Of a stretch of 21,948 bases of DNA, positions 4,405 through 20,236 are shown one piece after another (position 1 is the first letter of the stretch; every line of letters begins with the position of its first letter). The position numbers were made by a program, and so were the translations under genes. The notes under the pieces are model-generated. The model did not search any database, was not told where the DNA came from, and saw nothing but the letters and a program-made list of their open reading frames with translations. The stretch lies in IMG/VR virus record IMGVR_UViG_2913147268_000003. One strand, 5' to 3'. The stretch comes from a virus (Duplodnaviria; Heunggongvirae; Uroviricota; Caudoviricetes).

Positions 4405-4675
4405 TTTTCTCTTCACTCCGATATACAAGGATTACCACACCCCCTCTGCTGATTGCGCGAGCTGGATCCCCTGGTTCCATGCCGTCAATTCCGAAGGCTT
4501 CGGAAAACGCATTCATTGCCTTCTGGCGTTCATCCTGCTTACGGCGTTTATTCCATTTTTTCAGGAACAACAGCGACAGCCACCGTCCGCTGCAGAACAC
4601 GATGTAAAAATAACCAAGGAGCGCCAGGCCGACATTCAGGGCCGTTTCTATGGTTAGTTGTGAGTCAGTTGCCAT
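4358..4675 (-). CDS. Hypothetical small membrane protein (105 aa)
   Basis: ATG at 4673-4675 with an AGGTAAGAA site, 5 nt after the stop of the upstream gene. The N-terminus has a hydrophobic helix (LNVGLALLGYFYIVF) followed by a basic stretch. Confidence 0.35.
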   Translation of the reverse strand: MATDSQLTIETALNVGLALLGYFYIVFCSGRWLSLLFLKKWNKRRKQDERQKAMNAFSEAFGIDGMEPGDPARAISRGGVVILVYRSEEKNDDHKTTSRKNHISP

Positions 4676-6988: not shown

Positions 6989-7645
6989 TCAGAAAATATC
7001 CCACCTGGCATCAACCACAACACCTACTATTTCGCAATCATTGTCCATTTCTATGATTGGATATTGTGGATTAAGGGGCTTTAGAAACGCCTTTCCCATG
7101 TCAGAAATATATTTTTTGAATGTTGCTTCATTGGTAGATTTTTTTCTGGCGATGACGTAACACCCTGAAAAAACTTCTTTATCTGGGTTGACAAGGATCG
7201 ACATTCCTTCAGGAAATGTTATTCCTACGGGCGAAGTCATTGAGTCTCCGTGCACTTCCAGCCAGAACCCCCTCTCACCAGCGTATTTTACAGAATGCCT
7301 CCAATTATCCTGATCATACATGTTGTAGTCATCACCAGAAGTTGCGAATAATCCTGCCTGAACCCAGTTAATTACAGGGTAAGAGTGTGCTGTGTCTCTC
7401 TGTGGGCAGCTCTTAACATTATTTTCCCAATGCTTATCTTTTTCATCTCCGTTCTGAAGCCACTGCGGTGAACACCGCAGTGCAGCTGCAACTTTAAAAA
7501 GGGTGTCACCGTTGAAACTTTTTGTAAGGCCTTGCTCGGCTTTACTGATTGCAACTCTGGTGATCCCAGCTTTTTTAGCCAACGCATCTTGTGTTAACCC
7601 AGCTTTTTGCCGTGCGTTGATGAGACGTTCACCTAAAGACTTCAT
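6989..7645 (-). CDS. cI: CI-type phage repressor (N-terminal HTH, C-terminal S24 LexA-like peptidase)
   Basis: ATG at 7643-7645 preceded by GAGGAG. N-terminal HTH (LTQDALAKKAGITRVAISKAEQG), a candidate Ala-Gly autocleavage site (VQAGLF), the S24 Ser motif (GDSM) and a downstream Lys (IARKK). The track ORF from 7720 is a non-supported N-terminal extension. Confidence 0.85.
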   Translation of the reverse strand: MKSLGERLINARQKAGLTQDALAKKAGITRVAISKAEQGLTKSFNGDTLFKVAAALRCSPQWLQNGDEKDKHWENNVKSCPQRDTAHSYPVINWVQAGLFATSGDDYNMYDQDNWRHSVKYAGERGFWLEVHGDSMTSPVGITFPEGMSILVNPDKEVFSGCYVIARKKSTNEATFKKYISDMGKAFLKPLNPQYPIIEMDNDCEIVGVVVDARWDIF

Positions 7646-10498: not shown

Positions 10499-10719
10499 TC
10501 CGCCACATCGTTAATTCCCTGTATCACCGATACAACCGTTGCCCCCGTGTGGGGCAGTGGTTCGCCACCAGCAACGGTCACGTTCTGCGGGTTTGCCTAG
10601 TCAACGCTGAAAGCCAGAAAGTCGTGTGCGAACTACAGGGGCGTAGCTACACCATCAGTTACCCTCTGGCGGTATTTCTGTCTGGAAAAATGTTTAAGCG
10701 TCTGGGAGGTGTGGCGTGA
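10495..10719 (+). CDS. Hypothetical small phage protein (74 aa)
   Basis: Start context (GCGGAGGTGCGTCCATGATCCGCCAC) is nearly identical to the start context of 9456..10307. Confidence 0.4.
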   Translation: MIRHIVNSLYHRYNRCPRVGQWFATSNGHVLRVCLVNAESQKVVCELQGRSYTISYPLAVFLSGKMFKRLGGVA

Positions 10720-11015
10720 ACTGTTTTCAGTTTGTGTGCGGATGTGCTTTCGATAACCCGATTCAGCGCCTAATTATGTTGCGTGTTTTGATGTCGGGTT
10801 CTTCAGACGGTGAAGGCGAGAGAGTTATTGATCATCAGGTGCTTGCTGATTTCTGCTGTTGTTCTAAGCAAGCGATATTCAGGGAAACCCTGGCACTGGA
10901 AAGAGCTGGTTATCTTCATATCCGAAAAATTGCAACGCTTACTATTGATGCAAAAGCCAGACTACAACCTGCGCGTGGCTACACAATTCTCATGCCGCGG
11001 AAGGAGGTTGTATGA
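10716..11015 (+). CDS. Hypothetical protein with possible HTH (99 aa)
   Basis: GTG start overlapping the upstream stop. Lies immediately upstream of the replication initiator; the segment SKQAIFRETLALERAGYL looks HTH-like. Confidence 0.4.
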   Translation: MNCFQFVCGCAFDNPIQRLIMLRVLMSGSSDGEGERVIDHQVLADFCCCSKQAIFRETLALERAGYLHIRKIATLTIDAKARLQPARGYTILMPRKEVV

Positions 11016-11998
11016 GCCGTTACGCCCCCACACCGGAAGTTATGGCTATTGGTCAAATTAATATTTCCGGCAATGTTACACCTGCGAACTGGTGGAAATA
11101 TATTCGACTACCCAGTGGGCGTCCGGATGCGACGGCTATCGCTCTGCTTTCAGAGATCGTTTACTGGTACCGCCCGACAGAGGTCAGGGATGAGCACACC
11201 GGAGCGTTGCTGGGATATCGCAAGCGTTTTCAGGGCGACAAACTGCAAAGAAGCTACCAGGCGTTTGCTGAGCAGTTTGGTTTCGGGAAAAGGGAAACCG
11301 CAGATGCGCTGAAGCGTCTGCGCGATGCAGGGTTTATTACTCTGGATTTACGCACGGTGGAAATGCTCGATGGGGTGAAATGCAGCAATATTTTGTTTGT
11401 CGGGATCAACCCACAGGCAATTGCGGCCATCACCACACCTTCTTCTGTTTCGCCAGAAAGTAACAGCAATAATGCAATCAGCGATACAGCTATTACGTTA
11501 AAACGGAACACCCCCCGACGTCATAACGGAACAGGGGATACGCCGAATGTTGATACAAATACAGAGATTACTACAGAGATTACAACGGAGACTAAAAACA
11601 CTATTGATGCATCCGCTGACGCGTCTGCGCGTTCTGCCCGACAGGAATATTCACCGGAATTTGAACAGGCCTGGCAGGAATATCCCAAACGTGCTGGTGG
11701 CAATTCCAAGTCAGCAGCCTTCAAAGCCTGGAAAGCCCGTATCAGGGAGGGAATAAAACCGGAGACCATGCTTGATGGCGTGAAGCGGTATGCCGCCTGG
11801 GTACGTGCTACAGGAAATACCGGCACACAGTTCGTGAAGCAGGCTGCGACGTTCTTTGGACCCGATCGTCACTTCGAAGATTACTGGCAACAGCCAGCCG
11901 CTCACGGAGGTGGGCGACAGCGACAGGTCGATGTCCTGGCTGGCCTGGGAGCCATGTCTGACAAATTCGGTAAATCCAGTAACAAATTGACATTCTGA
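11012..11998 (+). CDS. Phage replication initiation protein (O-like / replisome organiser)
   Basis: 328 aa with AAGGAGG upstream. It has an N-terminal DNA-binding-like domain, a low-complexity linker whose DNA carries tandem iterons, and a C-terminal domain, and it sits directly upstream of the loader and helicase genes. Confidence 0.65.
   Translation: MSRYAPTPEVMAIGQINISGNVTPANWWKYIRLPSGRPDATAIALLSEIVYWYRPTEVRDEHTGALLGYRKRFQGDKLQRSYQAFAEQFGFGKRETADALKRLRDAGFITLDLRTVEMLDGVKCSNILFVGINPQAIAAITTPSSVSPESNSNNAISDTAITLKRNTPRRHNGTGDTPNVDTNTEITTEITTETKNTIDASADASARSARQEYSPEFEQAWQEYPKRAGGNSKSAAFKAWKARIREGIKPETMLDGVKRYAAWVRATGNTGTQFVKQAATFFGPDRHFEDYWQQPAAHGGGRQRQVDVLAGLGAMSDKFGKSSNKLTF
11561..11596. 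repeat. Tandem 12 bp iteron-like repeats inside the replication initiator gene
   Basis: ACAGAGATTACT / ACAGAGATTACA / ACGGAGACTAAA in direct tandem, encoding TEITTEITTETK in the linker. Confidence 0.5.
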
Positions 11999-12008
11999 GG
12001 TGACAGCG

Positions 12009-12908
12009 ATGATGACGATTGACCAACGTGAGAAACAAACAAGACTACAGGCGCGAATGGATGAGTTACGGGCAGAAATGGATGAGTTACGGGCAGAGAT
12101 TGCATTTGCTCAGAAGGGCGAAAAGCCATGGCCTTATCGTTCCTGCCTGATGCGTGAAGGTCGCGGATATTGCGAAAAACACGGTAAATATCGTACGCAT
12201 ATACTGGTGTGGATCGATCGTAATGGCGAGGACAGAGAAAAAATTTCATGCTGCCCTGACTGCTTGATCGCTGAGGCCAGTGATTTGACCATGGAACTGT
12301 CGTCCCTCAAGGCGGAAGAACTGACTGATAACGCCGGAATTGCTCTGCGTTTTCGGGACTGCGAGTTTGATAATTATCTGGAGGTTAATCCTGACGCAGC
12401 CAGAAATCTTGCGGCCTGTCGCCGCTATGCGGAGAACTGGCCAGATATGCTGGAGAACGGTACCAGTCTTGTTATGACCGGCAGTTGCGGTACCGGGAAA
12501 AATCATCTGGCGGTATCAATGGCAAAACACATCATCCGTAACTATCTGGCCAGTGTGGAGATCACCGACGTGATGCGCCTTACCCGGGCTGTGAAAAACT
12601 GCTGGCGGAATGACAGTGAAAAAACAGCGGATGACGTCATTGAGCATTATGCGTCACTGGATTTGCTGATTGTCGACGAAGTCGGCGTTCAGTTTGGCAG
12701 TGCGGCTGAAATGGCCATTTTGCAGGAAATTATCAATGCCCGGTATGAGGGTATTTTGCCAACTATCCTGATCAGCAACCTTTCACCGGAAGAATTGTGG
12801 GCGTTCATCAGTCCCCGGATTGCCGACAGGATCACCGATGGCGGGCGCAACTGGTTGTCGTTTAACTGGCCCAGCTACCGTTCTCGTATCGGAGGTGTTG
12901 CCGCATGA
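12009..12908 (+). CDS. DnaC-like helicase loader (IstB-type AAA+ ATPase)
   Basis: ATG at 12009 with GAGGTGA upstream. Walker A (GSCGTGKNHLA) and Walker B (LLIVDEVG) motifs. The N-terminal extension has a Cys cluster (C-x9-C ... CCPDC) and a tandem repeat. Confidence 0.8.
   Translation: MMTIDQREKQTRLQARMDELRAEMDELRAEIAFAQKGEKPWPYRSCLMREGRGYCEKHGKYRTHILVWIDRNGEDREKISCCPDCLIAEASDLTMELSSLKAEELTDNAGIALRFRDCEFDNYLEVNPDAARNLAACRRYAENWPDMLENGTSLVMTGSCGTGKNHLAVSMAKHIIRNYLASVEITDVMRLTRAVKNCWRNDSEKTADDVIEHYASLDLLIVDEVGVQFGSAAEMAILQEIINARYEGILPTILISNLSPEELWAFISPRIADRITDGGRNWLSFNWPSYRSRIGGVAA
12057..12098. repeat. 21 bp tandem duplication within the DnaC-like gene
   Basis: ATGGATGAGTTACGGGCAGAA followed by ATGGATGAGTTACGGGCAGAG, encoding MDELRAE twice in frame. 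Confidence 0.85.
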
Positions 12909-14305
12909 CCAGCCAGAACACCCCGGCATGGCGTAACGATGACCTGGAAGGCGCTGTCATCGGTGCGTTTTTTCTGCGTGGGGCCGATCCGGAAGTGATG
13001 GATATTCTGGCCACACTTCCGGCGGATGTATTTTTTGTGCGTCAGTACCGGGATATTTACGCGGGGATTTGCAGACAGGCTCGCATATCCGGCGTCATTG
13101 ACCCCGTACTGCTGTGCAATGAGATGCCGGAACTTGCCCCGGTGATTACCGACACCGGACGCAAAACCTGGGTGAAGTCTTCACTGGAGCACTATGTCGC
13201 AGCGTTGCGGCGCAATGCCGCACTGCGTGATGCAGAAAAAACACTGACTGAAGCATTACAGAATTTACGTGATGCGTATACCTGTGAAGCAGCCGAGGAT
13301 GCCCTGAAGGATGCGCAGAACATGATGGCCTCACTGTCGACCGGAAAGGGCGTCATTCAGCCGGTTCACATTGATGATGTCCTTCCGGAAGTGGTCGACC
13401 GTGTTGAATGCCGCAATCAGGGACTGGAGAAATCCAGGGCGCTGATGACCGGTATTGATGAACTGGACGCAAAAACGGGCGGTATGGAGCCCGGAGACCT
13501 GGTATTCATTGCCGCCCGTCCTTCGATGGGGAAAACCGAACTTGCGCTGGACATCATCGACAAGGTGACTGAGCAGGGGCATGGCGTGCTTCTGTTCACC
13601 ATGGAGATGGCGAACATCCAGATTGGTGAACGTATGGTGTCTGCTGCCGGTGGAATGCCGGTATCCCGTCTTAAGTCTGTTGCCCGTTTTGAAGATGAAG
13701 ACTGGGCGCGTTTCTCGCAGGGCGTGGGACGAATGACGGGGCGTAATATCTGGATGGTGGACCAGGCAAACCTGACCATTGATGAGATATGTGCAACCAC
13801 GAAGCACCACCGGATGAAGCATCCGGAAACGGCGCTGGTTGTGGTCGATTACCTCGGCCTGATTAAAACCCGCAGCACGGGGCGTCACGACCTTGCTGTG
13901 GGGGAAATCTCAAAGGGACTTAAAAGCCTGGCAAAATCCGGCGGTTTTCCGCTGATTGCTCTGAGCCAGCTCTCCCGTGGCGTGGAATCCAGACCCAATA
14001 AACGCCCAATGAACTCGGACCTGAAAAACTCCGGGGAAATCGAGGCGGATGCCGACATCATTCTGATGCTTTACAGGGAGGAGGTATACAACCCGGAAAC
14101 TCAGGCCAGAGGCATAGCAGAAATCAACATCACGAAACAGCGTAATGGCACGCTCGGGACCATTTACCGGCGTTTTCATAACGGACATTTTCTGCCTGTG
14201 GACCAGGAGAGTGCCCGGGTTCTTTCCACACCAATGCAACAGCCCCAGCCGCGCAGATACAGCAACAAACGAACTGACAGCAGTAAGATGGAGCGTTTCT
14301 TTTGA
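12905..14305 (+). CDS. Replicative DNA helicase, DnaB-like
   Basis: 466 aa with GGAGGTG upstream. Walker A (ARPSMGKTELAL) and other DnaB-like motifs (VVDYLGLI, SQLSRGVESR, ITKQRNG). Confidence 0.85.
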   Translation: MTSQNTPAWRNDDLEGAVIGAFFLRGADPEVMDILATLPADVFFVRQYRDIYAGICRQARISGVIDPVLLCNEMPELAPVITDTGRKTWVKSSLEHYVAALRRNAALRDAEKTLTEALQNLRDAYTCEAAEDALKDAQNMMASLSTGKGVIQPVHIDDVLPEVVDRVECRNQGLEKSRALMTGIDELDAKTGGMEPGDLVFIAARPSMGKTELALDIIDKVTEQGHGVLLFTMEMANIQIGERMVSAAGGMPVSRLKSVARFEDEDWARFSQGVGRMTGRNIWMVDQANLTIDEICATTKHHRMKHPETALVVVDYLGLIKTRSTGRHDLAVGEISKGLKSLAKSGGFPLIALSQLSRGVESRPNKRPMNSDLKNSGEIEADADIILMLYREEVYNPETQARGIAEINITKQRNGTLGTIYRRFHNGHFLPVDQESARVLSTPMQQPQPRRYSNKRTDSSKMERFF

Positions 14306-18407: not shown

Positions 18408-18624
18408 ATCCGCGGTCGCATCATCCAGGTGCCGTCAAACTATGACCCGGAAAAACGCACGTACAGTGGTATCTGGGACGGCAGTCTGAAACCGGCATAC
18501 AGCAACAACCCGGCCTGGTGCCTGTGGGACATGCTGACTCACCCGCGCTACGGCATGGGAAAACGTCTGGGGCGGCGGATGTGGACAAGTGGGCGCTGTA
18601 TGCCATCGGGCAGTACTGCGACCA
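18408..18624 (+). pseudogene. Tail-tip host-specificity (J-like) fragment, plus-strand copy
   Basis: Encodes [55 protein letters not shown], then frameshifts by loss of one G. It is an inverted copy (about 99%) of 20019..20236. Confidence 0.6.
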
Positions 18625-20236
18625 TGCCTGATATCCGCAATCCGCTTTTCCGAGAACCAGAACTCAAACTGTACCGTCGGGTCATAAACGGCAAGATGTG
18701 GCGTTGCGGTTATCTGAAAATAGCCCGGCGTCAGCTCAATCCGCGACGGTGCTGCCGGTGCGGTAATCCGGAAGGTGGTGGTGGCAGGTTCACCCTGCTG
18801 GCCATAGCTGTTTATCGCCCGCACCGTCAGGGTGTATTCCCCGAGCGGCAGGCCGCTGAAACGGTGCTCCGTGTCTGCGGTGATGGCGGTGGTCACCAGT
18901 CTGGCATCCGTTCCCTTACCACTGGTCAGGCGCAGACTGAAGCACACACCCTTCACCACCCGCGGCGTGTCCCATTTCGCCTGCGCCAGATACTGGCCGT
19001 CAGCTGCGCTCACCTCCACCGTCAGGTGCTGCACTGCCGGTGGGATGACGCTGTTCAGGGAACCTGACTGCGGCTCAAAGCGGGCACCGTTATCCACGAT
19101 GGCTTCTTTTTCCGGTACGTGCTGCACCGCCGTGATGGCAAAGGTGCCGTCCGTGTTTTCCCGGATGGAGACACAGCGGAACAGGCGACGGCGCAGTGAC
19201 GGCAGGGAGAGTCCCCACACCCCGTATGTCTCCACACCATCAGGCAGGGTACTGACCTGTATCCGGTCCGGCGCGGGGTGTGCGGTGATGTCCACACTCA
19301 CCGGCTTACCGCTGCCGTTAATCAGGTTCACCGCCGATGTACCTGTCTCCGGCAGGGTAACCTCACGGTCCAGCGTCAGGGTGCGGGTGGCAGCATCAAT
19401 GGACAGGACACGTCCGCCGGTCAGGGTCCCGGCATAGTCATTATCACAGATTTCAATAATGTCACCGGGTGTGTGCCGCAGCCCCTGAGACCCGAGCGTG
19501 AAATCCACCGTCTGCGTTTCCAGCAGTTCGGTCTTTATCACCCACAGTCCGGCACGGTGGGCCTGACCGCGGCTGGTACAGCCGAACGCGTCCATCTTCA
19601 GCAGGTTGCGTCCGTAGCGCAGTATGGCTTCCGGGTCTTCCACCAGTTCCGTGGAGGTCTGCCAGCCGTTCTGCGGGTCGGTGTAATTCACCTCCACCGC
19701 CGTGTGCCGGTCCTTCAGGGCACTGAAGCTGTAGCGGAATCCCACGCCGTTATCATCCACCACCACATCGCTGTTGGTGTACGGCCACACCACATCCGAC
19801 GGGCGGTCCTGAACGAACGTCAGCGTCTGACCGTTCCATACCGGCATACAGCGCATCGCAGAGCAGAAATCACTGAGAACGTCCCACGCCTTACGCTGTT
19901 GTGCCAGGTACGCATTAAAGGTCATCCGCGGCTCGGTCCCCCCGAAACCATCCGGGACCGTCTGGTCGCAGTACTGCCCGATGGCATACAGCGCCCACTT
20001 GTCCACATCCGCCGCCCCTGGTCGCAGTACTGCCCGATGGCATACAGCGCCCACTTGTCCACATCCGCCGCCCCCAGACGTTTTCCCATGCCGTAGCGCG
20101 GGTGAGTCAGCATGTCCCACAGACACCAGGCCGGGTTGTTGCTGTATGCCGGTTTCAGACTGCCGTCCCAGATACCACTATACGTGCGTTTTTCCGGGTC
20201 ATAGTTTGACGGCACCTGGATGATGCGACCGCGGAT
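18625..20236 (-). pseudogene. Tail-tip host-specificity protein (lambda J-like) internal fragment, frameshifted
   Basis: Minus-strand translation gives a long J-like stretch ([74 protein letters not shown] ... [44 protein letters not shown]) matching the central part of lambda J as recalled. It lacks both ends and is broken by a 56 bp tandem duplication. Confidence 0.8.
19962..20073. repeat. Perfect 2 x 56 bp tandem duplication inside the J-like remnant
   Basis: CTGGTCGCAGTACTGCCCGATGGCATACAGCGCCCACTTGTCCACATCCGCCGCCC occurs twice in direct tandem (19962-20017 and 20018-20073). 56 is not a multiple of 3, so it frameshifts the J reading frame. Confidence 0.85.

Follow-up and report, generated by a model that had tools for sequence, protein, structure and literature searches.

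Tandem 12-bp repeats in the linker of a prophage initiator gene are conserved as nucleic acid across phyla and mark a probable lambda-style replication origin

Replication origins that combine double-strand sites for the initiator with an unwinding element are textbook knowledge, and the unwinding elements are regarded as replicon-specific and constrained mainly by their AT content. When a short tandem repeat lies inside the coding sequence of an initiator, the question arises whether it is kept for its peptide or for its DNA, and what it does there. Such a repeat is found in the IMG/VR virus record IMGVR_UViG_2913147268_000003 (Caudoviricetes), whose whole stretch of 21,948 nucleotides is called the window here. 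It lies in the linker of a replication initiator of 328 residues, encoded by the open reading frame (ORF) 11012-11998. A sequence-only reading had taken three direct 12-bp repeats in this linker for iterons and the locus for a probable origin. Our analysis supports the origin, and the repeats are under strong selection as nucleic acid. Judged from sequence comparison, the initiator gene very probably contains a lambda-style origin at 11494-11595, in which the 12-bp repeats (12-mers) follow a set of palindromic sites.

Read directly, the array consists of a perfect tandem pair of TACAGAGATTAC at 11560-11571 and 11572-11583, and is followed at once by the degenerate third unit AACGGAGACTAA at 11584-11595. 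Shifted by one base to the phase 11561-11596, they read ACAGAGATTACT, ACAGAGATTACA and ACGGAGACTAAA; the first two differ at the last base only, and the third matches at 9 of 12 positions. The earlier description of three direct repeats, two of them perfect save for the last base and one degenerate, is thus correct and was also returned by Tandem Repeats Finder (period 12, 2.7 copies, score 50). The units run head to tail and dyad symmetry is absent. The array encodes the peptide TEIT-TEIT-TETK and occupies codons 182-195 of 328. As had been proposed, it lies in the linker of the initiator, with the modelled winged helix of the amino-terminal domain (N-domain) on one side and a shared carboxy-terminal domain (C-domain) on the other. 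When up to two mismatches were allowed, TACAGAGATTAC had seven matches in the window versus 1.2 ± 1.1 in dinucleotide shuffles, and none of 100 shuffles reached seven. The only perfect copies in the window are the two at 11560-11583. The copy number depends on the strain in Escherichia coli: PU-1 and MS15052 have three perfect copies, the window has two. Two single 12-mer-like copies with two mismatches were seen on the plus strand. The copy TACAGCTATTAC at 11485-11496 overlaps the start of the first palindrome (Table 1) and might be a flanking degenerate unit, and TACAAGGATTAC at 4424-4435 is distant from the origin and probably a chance match.

The conservation of the element was analysed in relatives that were picked independently of the repeat. 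The N-domain motif [ED]I[VI]YWYRP was scanned in one genome per species, which gave 345 relatives on genome contigs from many phyla. Of these, 80 were fetched and reduced to 48 representatives with less than 80% N-domain identity. The fetched relatives are from the Enterobacterales, Acinetobacter, Bacillota, Cyanobacteria, Chloroflexota, Rickettsiales and Atribacterota. All N-domain homologues at 39-58% identity had the peptide T-E-I/N-T-T-E at the equivalent linker position, and the DNA of the element in the fetched relatives read AC(A/G)(A/T)ATACAGAGAWTACTACAGAGAWTAC nearly throughout. In its general form, the motif is (TACAGAGAWTAC)2-4. For a control, we analysed the invariant residues of the N-domain in the 48 representatives. 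There, the synonymous third positions were saturated, with a mean top-base fraction of 0.48; Thr was encoded by ACA in 16 of 42 cases, Glu by GAG in 20 of 44 and Lys by AAG in about half. The codons of the element were then counted, with the peptide T[NY]T[EKD] as the only anchor. Asn was always AAT (27/27), Tyr always TAT (8/8) and Thr almost always ACA (34/35), with GAG outnumbering GAA by 21 to 2 for Glu and AAG outnumbering AAA by 10 to 0 for Lys. The second codon position of the next residue was free, with AAT, ATT and ACT encoding Asn, Ile and Thr. A non-synonymous change is therefore tolerated where the DNA motif is degenerate, and a synonymous change is barred where the motif is fixed. 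In the position matrix, most of the 24 core positions had 1.5-2.0 bits, and this includes third codon positions; 11 of the 12 unit positions were conserved across phyla.

Copies were also kept in other reading frames after insertions or deletions of 1 nt, as TNTKNNYREYNRDS, TNTEITYKEYSGES and DVYRDYLEITTKTT in the relatives L065, L084 and L033, respectively. In the Lachnospiraceae, a recurrent ...DRDY... represents further copies in a shifted frame. The unit TACARAGAHTAC, with one mismatch allowed, had 80 matches within the arrays versus 4 in the other 259 kb on both strands. Most lineages have two copies (range 0-4), usually spaced by 12 bp and in some cases by 11, 13, 15 or 24 bp. We conclude from the codon pattern and the shifted copies that selection on the 12-mers acts on the nucleic acid and not on the peptide. 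A repeat kept for its peptide only is excluded by the codon analysis, the frame-shifted copies and a non-coding copy that is described below.

The exact 24-mer of the element was found in at least 120 IMG/VR contigs, where chance would give far below one by our own estimate, which assumes about 1e11 bases. Among deposited phage genomes, 122 had it, in every case at a gene with the annotation of a replication initiator, and 91 plasmid records contained it as well. Among the IMG/VR matches listed, all lay in the linker of initiator-like ORFs, and a helix with the motif [Q/E/D]xx[Y/F]W was encoded upstream in each of the 112 ORFs with an untruncated upstream part. The N-domains are of several types. 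Type A, to which the window belongs, has YWYRP, type B with ASU11 and the Stx phages has ...GRPIAYYPGL...LFCQFFYW..., and type C has ...LNEAIVLQQICYWL...; one further type occurred among the IMG/VR matches listed. By profile comparison with hhalign (probability 83-96%, E 1e-6 to 4e-9, 19-22% identity), types A, B and C are no more than remote homologues that share a helix-turn-helix and one helix ending in [Q/E/D]xx[Y/F]W. One type-B initiator on an IMG/VR contig (L098) has an HNH-nuclease-like insert (...FDHVIPLSKGGGHTFGNIRPAHQKCNQQKG...) in the linker just before the 12-mers.

The phages phiP27 and PhiR49_2 allow the contributions of host, C-domain and N-domain to be separated. They have the same host as the window, a C-domain that is 97-100% identical and DnaC/DnaB genes with about 87-91% nucleotide identity. 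Their N-domain belongs to another class without the YW helix, and the repeats at the equivalent position are AAACATGATCCGCAAG in two copies and GAACCAGTCAAA in 2.5 copies. The second repeats thus track the N-domain class and not the host or the C-domain. Since the 12-mers are tied to one N-domain class, a contact of the initiator with the 12-mers is likely. Iterons and recognition helices change within the YW class but the 12-mers do not, so the partner would be a conserved surface of the N-domain and not the specificity helix.

A copy of the motif outside coding DNA was found in pBamNAU-B3a (L217, NC_022531.1), an 8.4-kb rolling-circle plasmid of Bacillus. Its cassette at 7257-7378 has three CCTACAGGGAAA repeats that are 22-23 bp apart and then three TACAGAGATTAC units. 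An initiator ORF was not found around the cassette. The Rep that pBamNAU-B3a itself encodes is a rolling-circle Rep and spans the start of the record, and a 457-residue ORF was rejected as a candidate initiator since it encodes a secreted-type protein in which Rep features are absent. The orphan cassette may be a remnant; alternatively, it could serve as a site in cis by which the initiator of a resident phage is used or titrated.

The sequence-only reading had compared the 12-mers to the iterons in the lambda O gene. This was not borne out. The 12-mers are 12-bp head-to-tail units without a dyad, and they are identical where iterons and recognition helices differ. The iterons of plasmids, which are Rep-specific direct repeats of about 17-22 bp at a spacing of about 22 bp, do not resemble them either: unit and period are 12 bp, and the same 12-mer stands beside N-domains of 19-22% identity and beside different palindromes. 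The lambda-type description is instead matched by three upstream sites, listed in Table 1 as candidate iterons 1 to 3. They are spaced by 22-23 bp and have the consensus TACGTTnnAACGTA. Sites 1 and 2 share a 16-nt repeat, ACGTTAAAACGGAACA at 11495 and ACGTCATAACGGAACA at 11518, which is identical at 14 of 16 positions. The offset of 23 bp places the two in different reading frames, with TLKRNT and RRHNGT as the encoded peptides. Site 3 is weak on its own and aligns column for column with CTACGTTGAAACGTG of the relative L015; good sites at −16 are present in the relatives from Serratia, Xenorhabdus, Arsenophonus, Brevibacillus and Evansella.

In type-A lineages of the Enterobacterales, Bacillota and Atribacterota, TACGTTnnAACGTA sites were found at −16, −38, −60/−61, −82/−83 and −104/−108 from the conserved element. 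Such phased sites occur in Serratia, Arsenophonus, Xenorhabdus, Thermoanaerobacterium, Brevibacillus, Evansella and an Atribacterota genome, with 36 matches in 4641 upstream positions compared to a background rate of 3.4e-4. In other type-A lineages and in types B, C and E, the palindromes are different ones at a period of 23-24 bp, for example TGGTCAnnnTGACCA, CCCGAAACGGGG, GAGGGCAAATTGCCCTC and CAATCnAGATTG, and the same 12-mers come after them. In the window, the 12-mers begin 8 bp past the last palindrome, and the type-A relatives have a fixed offset. On the basis of symmetry, spacing and lineage specificity, the three upstream palindromes appear to be better candidates for the iterons than the 12-mers.

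A search for an AT-rich unwinding element downstream had been suggested. Such an element is present as a minimum of duplex stability, but it is largely the repeat array itself and not a separate element. In nearest-neighbour calculations, the 36 bp at 11547-11582 had a free energy of −39.7 kcal/mol versus a mean of −49.9 (standard deviation 3.6) over 10700-12000, with a z of about 2.8. Among 39 representatives, the ORF-wide stability minimum was no more than 40 bp away from the element in 19, and the mean z was 1.6.

We infer from these observations how the origin might operate. On balance, the 12-mers probably act as second-site repeats of the DNA unwinding element (DUE) type, which are opened by the iteron-bound initiator. 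The palindromes starting at 11494, 11517 and 11539 would be specific double-strand sites for dimers of the winged-helix N-domain, and the 12-mers at 11560-11595, which abut the last palindrome, would be the second-site element. The assembly of iteron-bound initiator would open the DNA at the 12-mers. One strand of the 12-mers would then be held, probably by the conserved surface of the N-domain, in the way RepE and TrfA hold DUE repeats, and the C-domain would bring in the DnaC-like/DnaB-like pair encoded just downstream.

Several points weigh against a DUE-type role. Iteron 3 is degenerate, which leaves the window with two good sites only (11494 and 11517). At about 67%, the AT content of the element is no more than moderate, and some other part of the gene is less stable in about half of the lineages. 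A copy with at most one mismatch is lacking in 7 of the 48 type-A representatives, some of which have truncated genes and some degenerate arrays. The representatives are not phylogenetically independent, and the codon counts are therefore no formal probabilities. In addition, the conservation of 11 of 12 positions exceeds what unwinding needs thermodynamically and would fit double-strand binding by initiator monomers equally well.

In some plasmid systems, Rep monomers bind to direct repeats and dimers to inverted repeats. The 12-mers might accordingly be true double-strand iterons that are bound head to tail by initiator monomers and nucleate the origin complex, with the palindromes as auxiliary or autoregulatory dimer sites. 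The conservation of nearly all unit positions, the tracking of the N-domain class rather than of host or C-domain, and the fixed distance from the last palindrome across the type-A lineages agree with this, as does the resemblance of the upstream repeats of pBamNAU-B3a (CCTACAGGGAAA) to the first half of the 12-mer. We consider it unlikely, however, because the same 12-mer accompanies N-domains of 19-22% identity with differing recognition helices and palindromes, where fixed specificity determinants are unexpected. The 12-bp period without a dyad is unlike the lambda iterons or the 17-22-bp iterons of plasmids, the unit spacings of 11, 12, 13, 15 and 24 bp break the helical phasing, and most lineages have just two or three units. 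The element could also work through its transcript, either as an RNA signal or because the purine-rich sense strand gives a stable RNA-DNA hybrid (R-loop) that aids opening as in the transcriptional activation of ori-lambda. Its conservation is indeed strand-specific and compatible with RNA, it lies nearly always in a transcribed gene and in one orientation, and the sense strand of the lambda AT-rich region is likewise purine-rich. A scan of the element against Rfam at E values up to 1, however, gave nothing but a meaningless snoRNA match, and no self-complementarity is present. The element occurs, moreover, where there is no long ORF, the cross-phylum identity is far stricter than purine richness demands, and the association with the N-domain class would be left unexplained, which makes a role of the transcript quite improbable.

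That the same sequence occurs in hosts from the Proteobacteria to the Bacillota, Cyanobacteria and Chloroflexota would fit a binding partner other than the phage initiator, namely a protein of the host that all bacteria have in common, such as a replication factor. Yet E. coli phages that have the same C-domain and helicase genes and another N-domain class are without the motif. A comparison by eye of the 12-mers with the DnaA box, the DnaA-trio and the IHF consensus gave no convincing match, and a sigma-70-like promoter was not found in 11300-11800. We regard a host partner as very unlikely. It is hardly credible that the array is a peptide repeat made by slippage in a tolerant linker, or a mere recombination junction, with no role in cis. 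The copy number does differ between strains, and the blastn homology to the ASU11-type phages does begin exactly at the second base of the array. A neutral linker, however, would have diverged like the adjacent saturated sites, whereas here the synonymous sites are fixed across phyla with one non-synonymous site varying, and frame-shifted and non-coding copies exist.

The region of the window is a module of a phiP27-like prophage of E. coli, and the segment 10700-11620 was found in 222 of 5426 complete E. coli genomes. When compared by blastn with ASU11- and phiP27-type phages, the homology has its left limit at 10711-10719, which is the left edge of a mosaic replacement. For ASU11 and the Stx phages it restarts at 11561, precisely where the repeat begins in the phase of the sequence-only reading, and for phiP27, PhiR49_2 and PhiR47_1 at about 11600. 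These limits define the N-domain and most of the linker (10712-11560) as a replaced cassette. The 12-mer motif clearly serves as a mosaic junction.

If the 12-mers are an opening or helicase-loading site, they would define a conserved contact between initiator and DNA, make the origins of many prophages, phage-plasmids and plasmids recognisable by a simple sequence marker, and account for the mosaic joints between initiator modules exactly at this place (11561 in the window). A wider proposal is that (TACAGAGAWTAC)n is a universal motif for origin opening or helicase loading in the very large class of winged-helix initiators of phages, prophages and plasmids with the [Q/E/D]xx[Y/F]W helix, read by the conserved N-domain surface, probably as single-stranded DNA and independently of the lineage-specific iterons. 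We put this forward tentatively and consider it less likely than not. If true, the motif would be the winged-helix counterpart of the DnaA-trio, the origins of thousands of uncharacterised mobile elements could be located by sequence alone, and isolated copies elsewhere, such as the one in the rolling-circle plasmid pBamNAU-B3a, could hijack or titrate such initiators.

The features of the locus are collected in Table 1.

Table 1. Coordinates of the candidate origin elements, the initiator gene and the neighbouring genes in the window
Feature	Position	Strand	Evidence or remark
Candidate iteron 1, TACGTTAAAACGGA, imperfect 14-bp palindrome	11494..11507		0 mismatches to TACGTTNNAACGKA; −61 from conserved element
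Candidate iteron 2, GACGTCATAACGGA	11517..11530		16-nt repeat of site 1; position −38
Candidate iteron 3, degenerate, TACGCCGAATGTTG	11539..11552		position −16
Conserved element, ACAAAT-(TACAGAGATTAC)x2-AACGGAGACTAA	11555..11595	+	position matrix, codon counts, array-specific matches, exact 24-mer in other records
Least stable 36-bp duplex of the initiator region	11547..11582		nearest-neighbour free energy
Replication initiator gene, 328 aa: winged-helix N-domain, linker with origin elements, C-domain	11012..11998	+	PHROG 270
N-terminal winged-helix domain, type A, motif LSEIVYWYRP and beta-hairpin insert	11012..11440	+	AlphaFold model
Initiator C-domain, common to phiP27-, ASU11- and PhiR49_2-type initiators; presumed helicase/loader recruiter	11597..11998	+	tblastn, blastn, PHROG
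DnaC-like helicase loader gene	12000..12908	+	Pfam IstB_IS21 4e-14; PHROG 50 'DnaC-like helicase loader' 1e-87
DnaB-like replicative helicase gene	12905..14305	+	Pfam DnaB_C 1e-73 and DnaB N-terminal domain
99-aa ORF, stand-alone winged helix like the N-domain of a different initiator class	10716..11015	+	PHROG 4617

The initiator ORF matched PHROG 270 'replication initiation protein' with an E value of 3e-75 and, weakly, the O-like PHROGs 391 and 678 (E 7e-7 and 1e-4). Searches against Pfam at E values up to 10 gave only a weak match to HTH_36, NCBIfam gave none, and no relative was found in the PDB by sequence. The AlphaFold model of residues 1-147 is a winged helix with a predicted local distance difference test (pLDDT) of 89.9. 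Its domain comprises about residues 1-140, with helices at 40-53, 82-89 and 93-105 and wing strands at 109-132. When it was compared with the PDB by Foldseek, only weak generic winged-helix matches were obtained (TFIIE-alpha, the N-terminal domain of DnaD, MarR). The C-domain starts at about residue 196. Residues 211-328 are 92-100% identical to phiP27-like phages (tblastn), and the PHROG matches are 'DnaD-like helicase loader' and 'primosomal protein'; a Pfam match of the C-domain was not found. The last 35 or so residues of the initiator vary between prophages (window 11890-11998 versus 2700-2808 in L009 and L010, and L008). One tail is found with DnaC/DnaB-like genes downstream (the window and L011-L013) and the other with PerC and methyltransferase genes (L009, L010 and PhiR47_1), which suggests that the C-terminal tail determines which helicase system is recruited.

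The 99-aa ORF lies directly upstream of the complete initiator gene, with an overlap of 4 bp, and is absent from the otherwise similar prophages L012 and L013. It matched positions 3-93 of the 223 positions of PHROG 4617 'replication initiation protein' (E 2e-29) and may be what is left of the replaced initiator, or else a regulator in its own right. A perfect tandem duplication of 21 bp (12056-12097, plus strand) in the 5' part of the DnaC-like gene doubles MDELRAE in frame; the unit is single-copy in the relatives checked (L001-L004 and L011-L013). A perfect 56-bp tandem duplication was seen at 19962-20074 in a large minus-strand ORF (18435-20126, overlapping 19922-20215), which by eye looks like a phage tail-fibre or host-specificity gene. 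Since 56 is not a multiple of 3, the reading frame is split, and the duplication has probably inactivated its gene recently.

How the locus relates to known origins is best seen with lambda. The classical ori- mutations ori95 and ori96 destroy the lambda ori in cis. Both are in-frame deletions, 12 or 15 bp long, within the AT-rich region, and their O protein still complements O amber mutants (PMC6022878). Iterons of the lambda type are inverted repeats of 18 bp that follow each other at about two helical turns, and in ori-lambda four such dyad-symmetric iterons are followed by a 39-bp AT-rich stretch prone to unwinding (PMC6022878). The window likewise has its candidate origin in the linker of the initiator gene, with dyad sites about two turns apart and an easily unwound stretch on the 3' side; directly 3' of the candidate iterons, where lambda has its AT-rich region, stands the 12-mer array. 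In lambda, the encoded peptide is dispensable and the DNA is needed in cis (PMC6022878), and the linker of the window is a clean example of the same logic, a protein sequence that appears to be dictated by the overlapping DNA. Modules are exchanged between the N-domain with the iterons and the C-domain in both, and lambda O, read from its sequence, also has a ...TYGW helix before the helix-turn-helix. The likeness is nevertheless architectural only, since the initiator of the window is outside Pfam Phage_rep_O. Its sites are 14-bp palindromes instead of 18-19 bp, and the phage supplies DnaC-like and DnaB-like proteins where lambda has the P protein. The lambda AT-rich region is without clear 12-mer units, and homology of the 12-mers to it was rejected because its position-matrix scores are just 4-6, compared with 20.6. 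By eye, AAAAACACTATT at the end of the array (11594-11606) and AAAAGACACTATT at the start of the lambda AT-rich region (lambda 39122-39134, L215 523-535) agree at 11 of 12 positions, a match whose significance is not established and which is not relied on here; the peptides at these places are TKNTI in the window and TKDTI in lambda.

The central repeats of the rep gene in the RepA_N/pLS32-type theta plasmids of Gram-positive bacteria also contain the origin, and their initiators have a conserved N-terminal helix-turn-helix and a variable C-terminus (PMC4490491). The initiator of the window has no match to Pfam RepA_N (PF06970), and the 12-mer motif is unreported for RepA_N plasmids. We rejected pLS32 with RepN as an experimentally mapped relative, since RepN belongs to RepA_N and the initiator does not match this family. 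We know of no motif-carrying phage with a mapped origin. Full-text literature searches, with most subscription papers outside their coverage, gave no relevant result for either the DNA motif or the peptide, so that a prior description is possible.

The 12-mers are closer in form to the DUE repeats, such as the 13-mers of oriC and of RK2 oriV and the repeats held as single strands by the Rep proteins of F and RK2. These are short tandem AT-rich units of 11-13 nt beside double-strand sites, and the two to four units of 12 nt that adjoin the palindromes agree with this. In oriC and RK2, the sequence of the 13-mers is required and not the AT content alone, and winged-helix Rep proteins hold DUE repeats strand-specifically while they are still iteron-bound (PMC10797057). 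For the 12-mers, the 11 of 12 positions kept between phyla likewise argue for a role of the sequence as such. The known DUE repeats vary by replicon, whereas the 12-mer is kept across phyla and across remote initiator classes, and within coding sequence. The DnaA box with the DnaA-trio offers the other parallel, as a cross-phylum motif in which the initiator, according to the proposal, is led onto one strand by a double-strand site that lies a short and fixed distance away from a phased repeat (PMC10797057). The period there is 3 nt instead of 12, the initiator is an AAA+ protein and not a winged helix, and the sequences are unrelated. The architecture of iterons plus unwinding element is thus known. 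What appears to be new, from the comparison of the sequences, is that the repeats on the unwinding side are one motif, conserved at the nucleotide level within coding sequence. This motif is nearly invariant in mobile elements of Proteobacteria, Bacillota, Cyanobacteria, Chloroflexota, Atribacterota and others, whose initiator classes are barely recognisable as homologues and whose iterons are unrelated.

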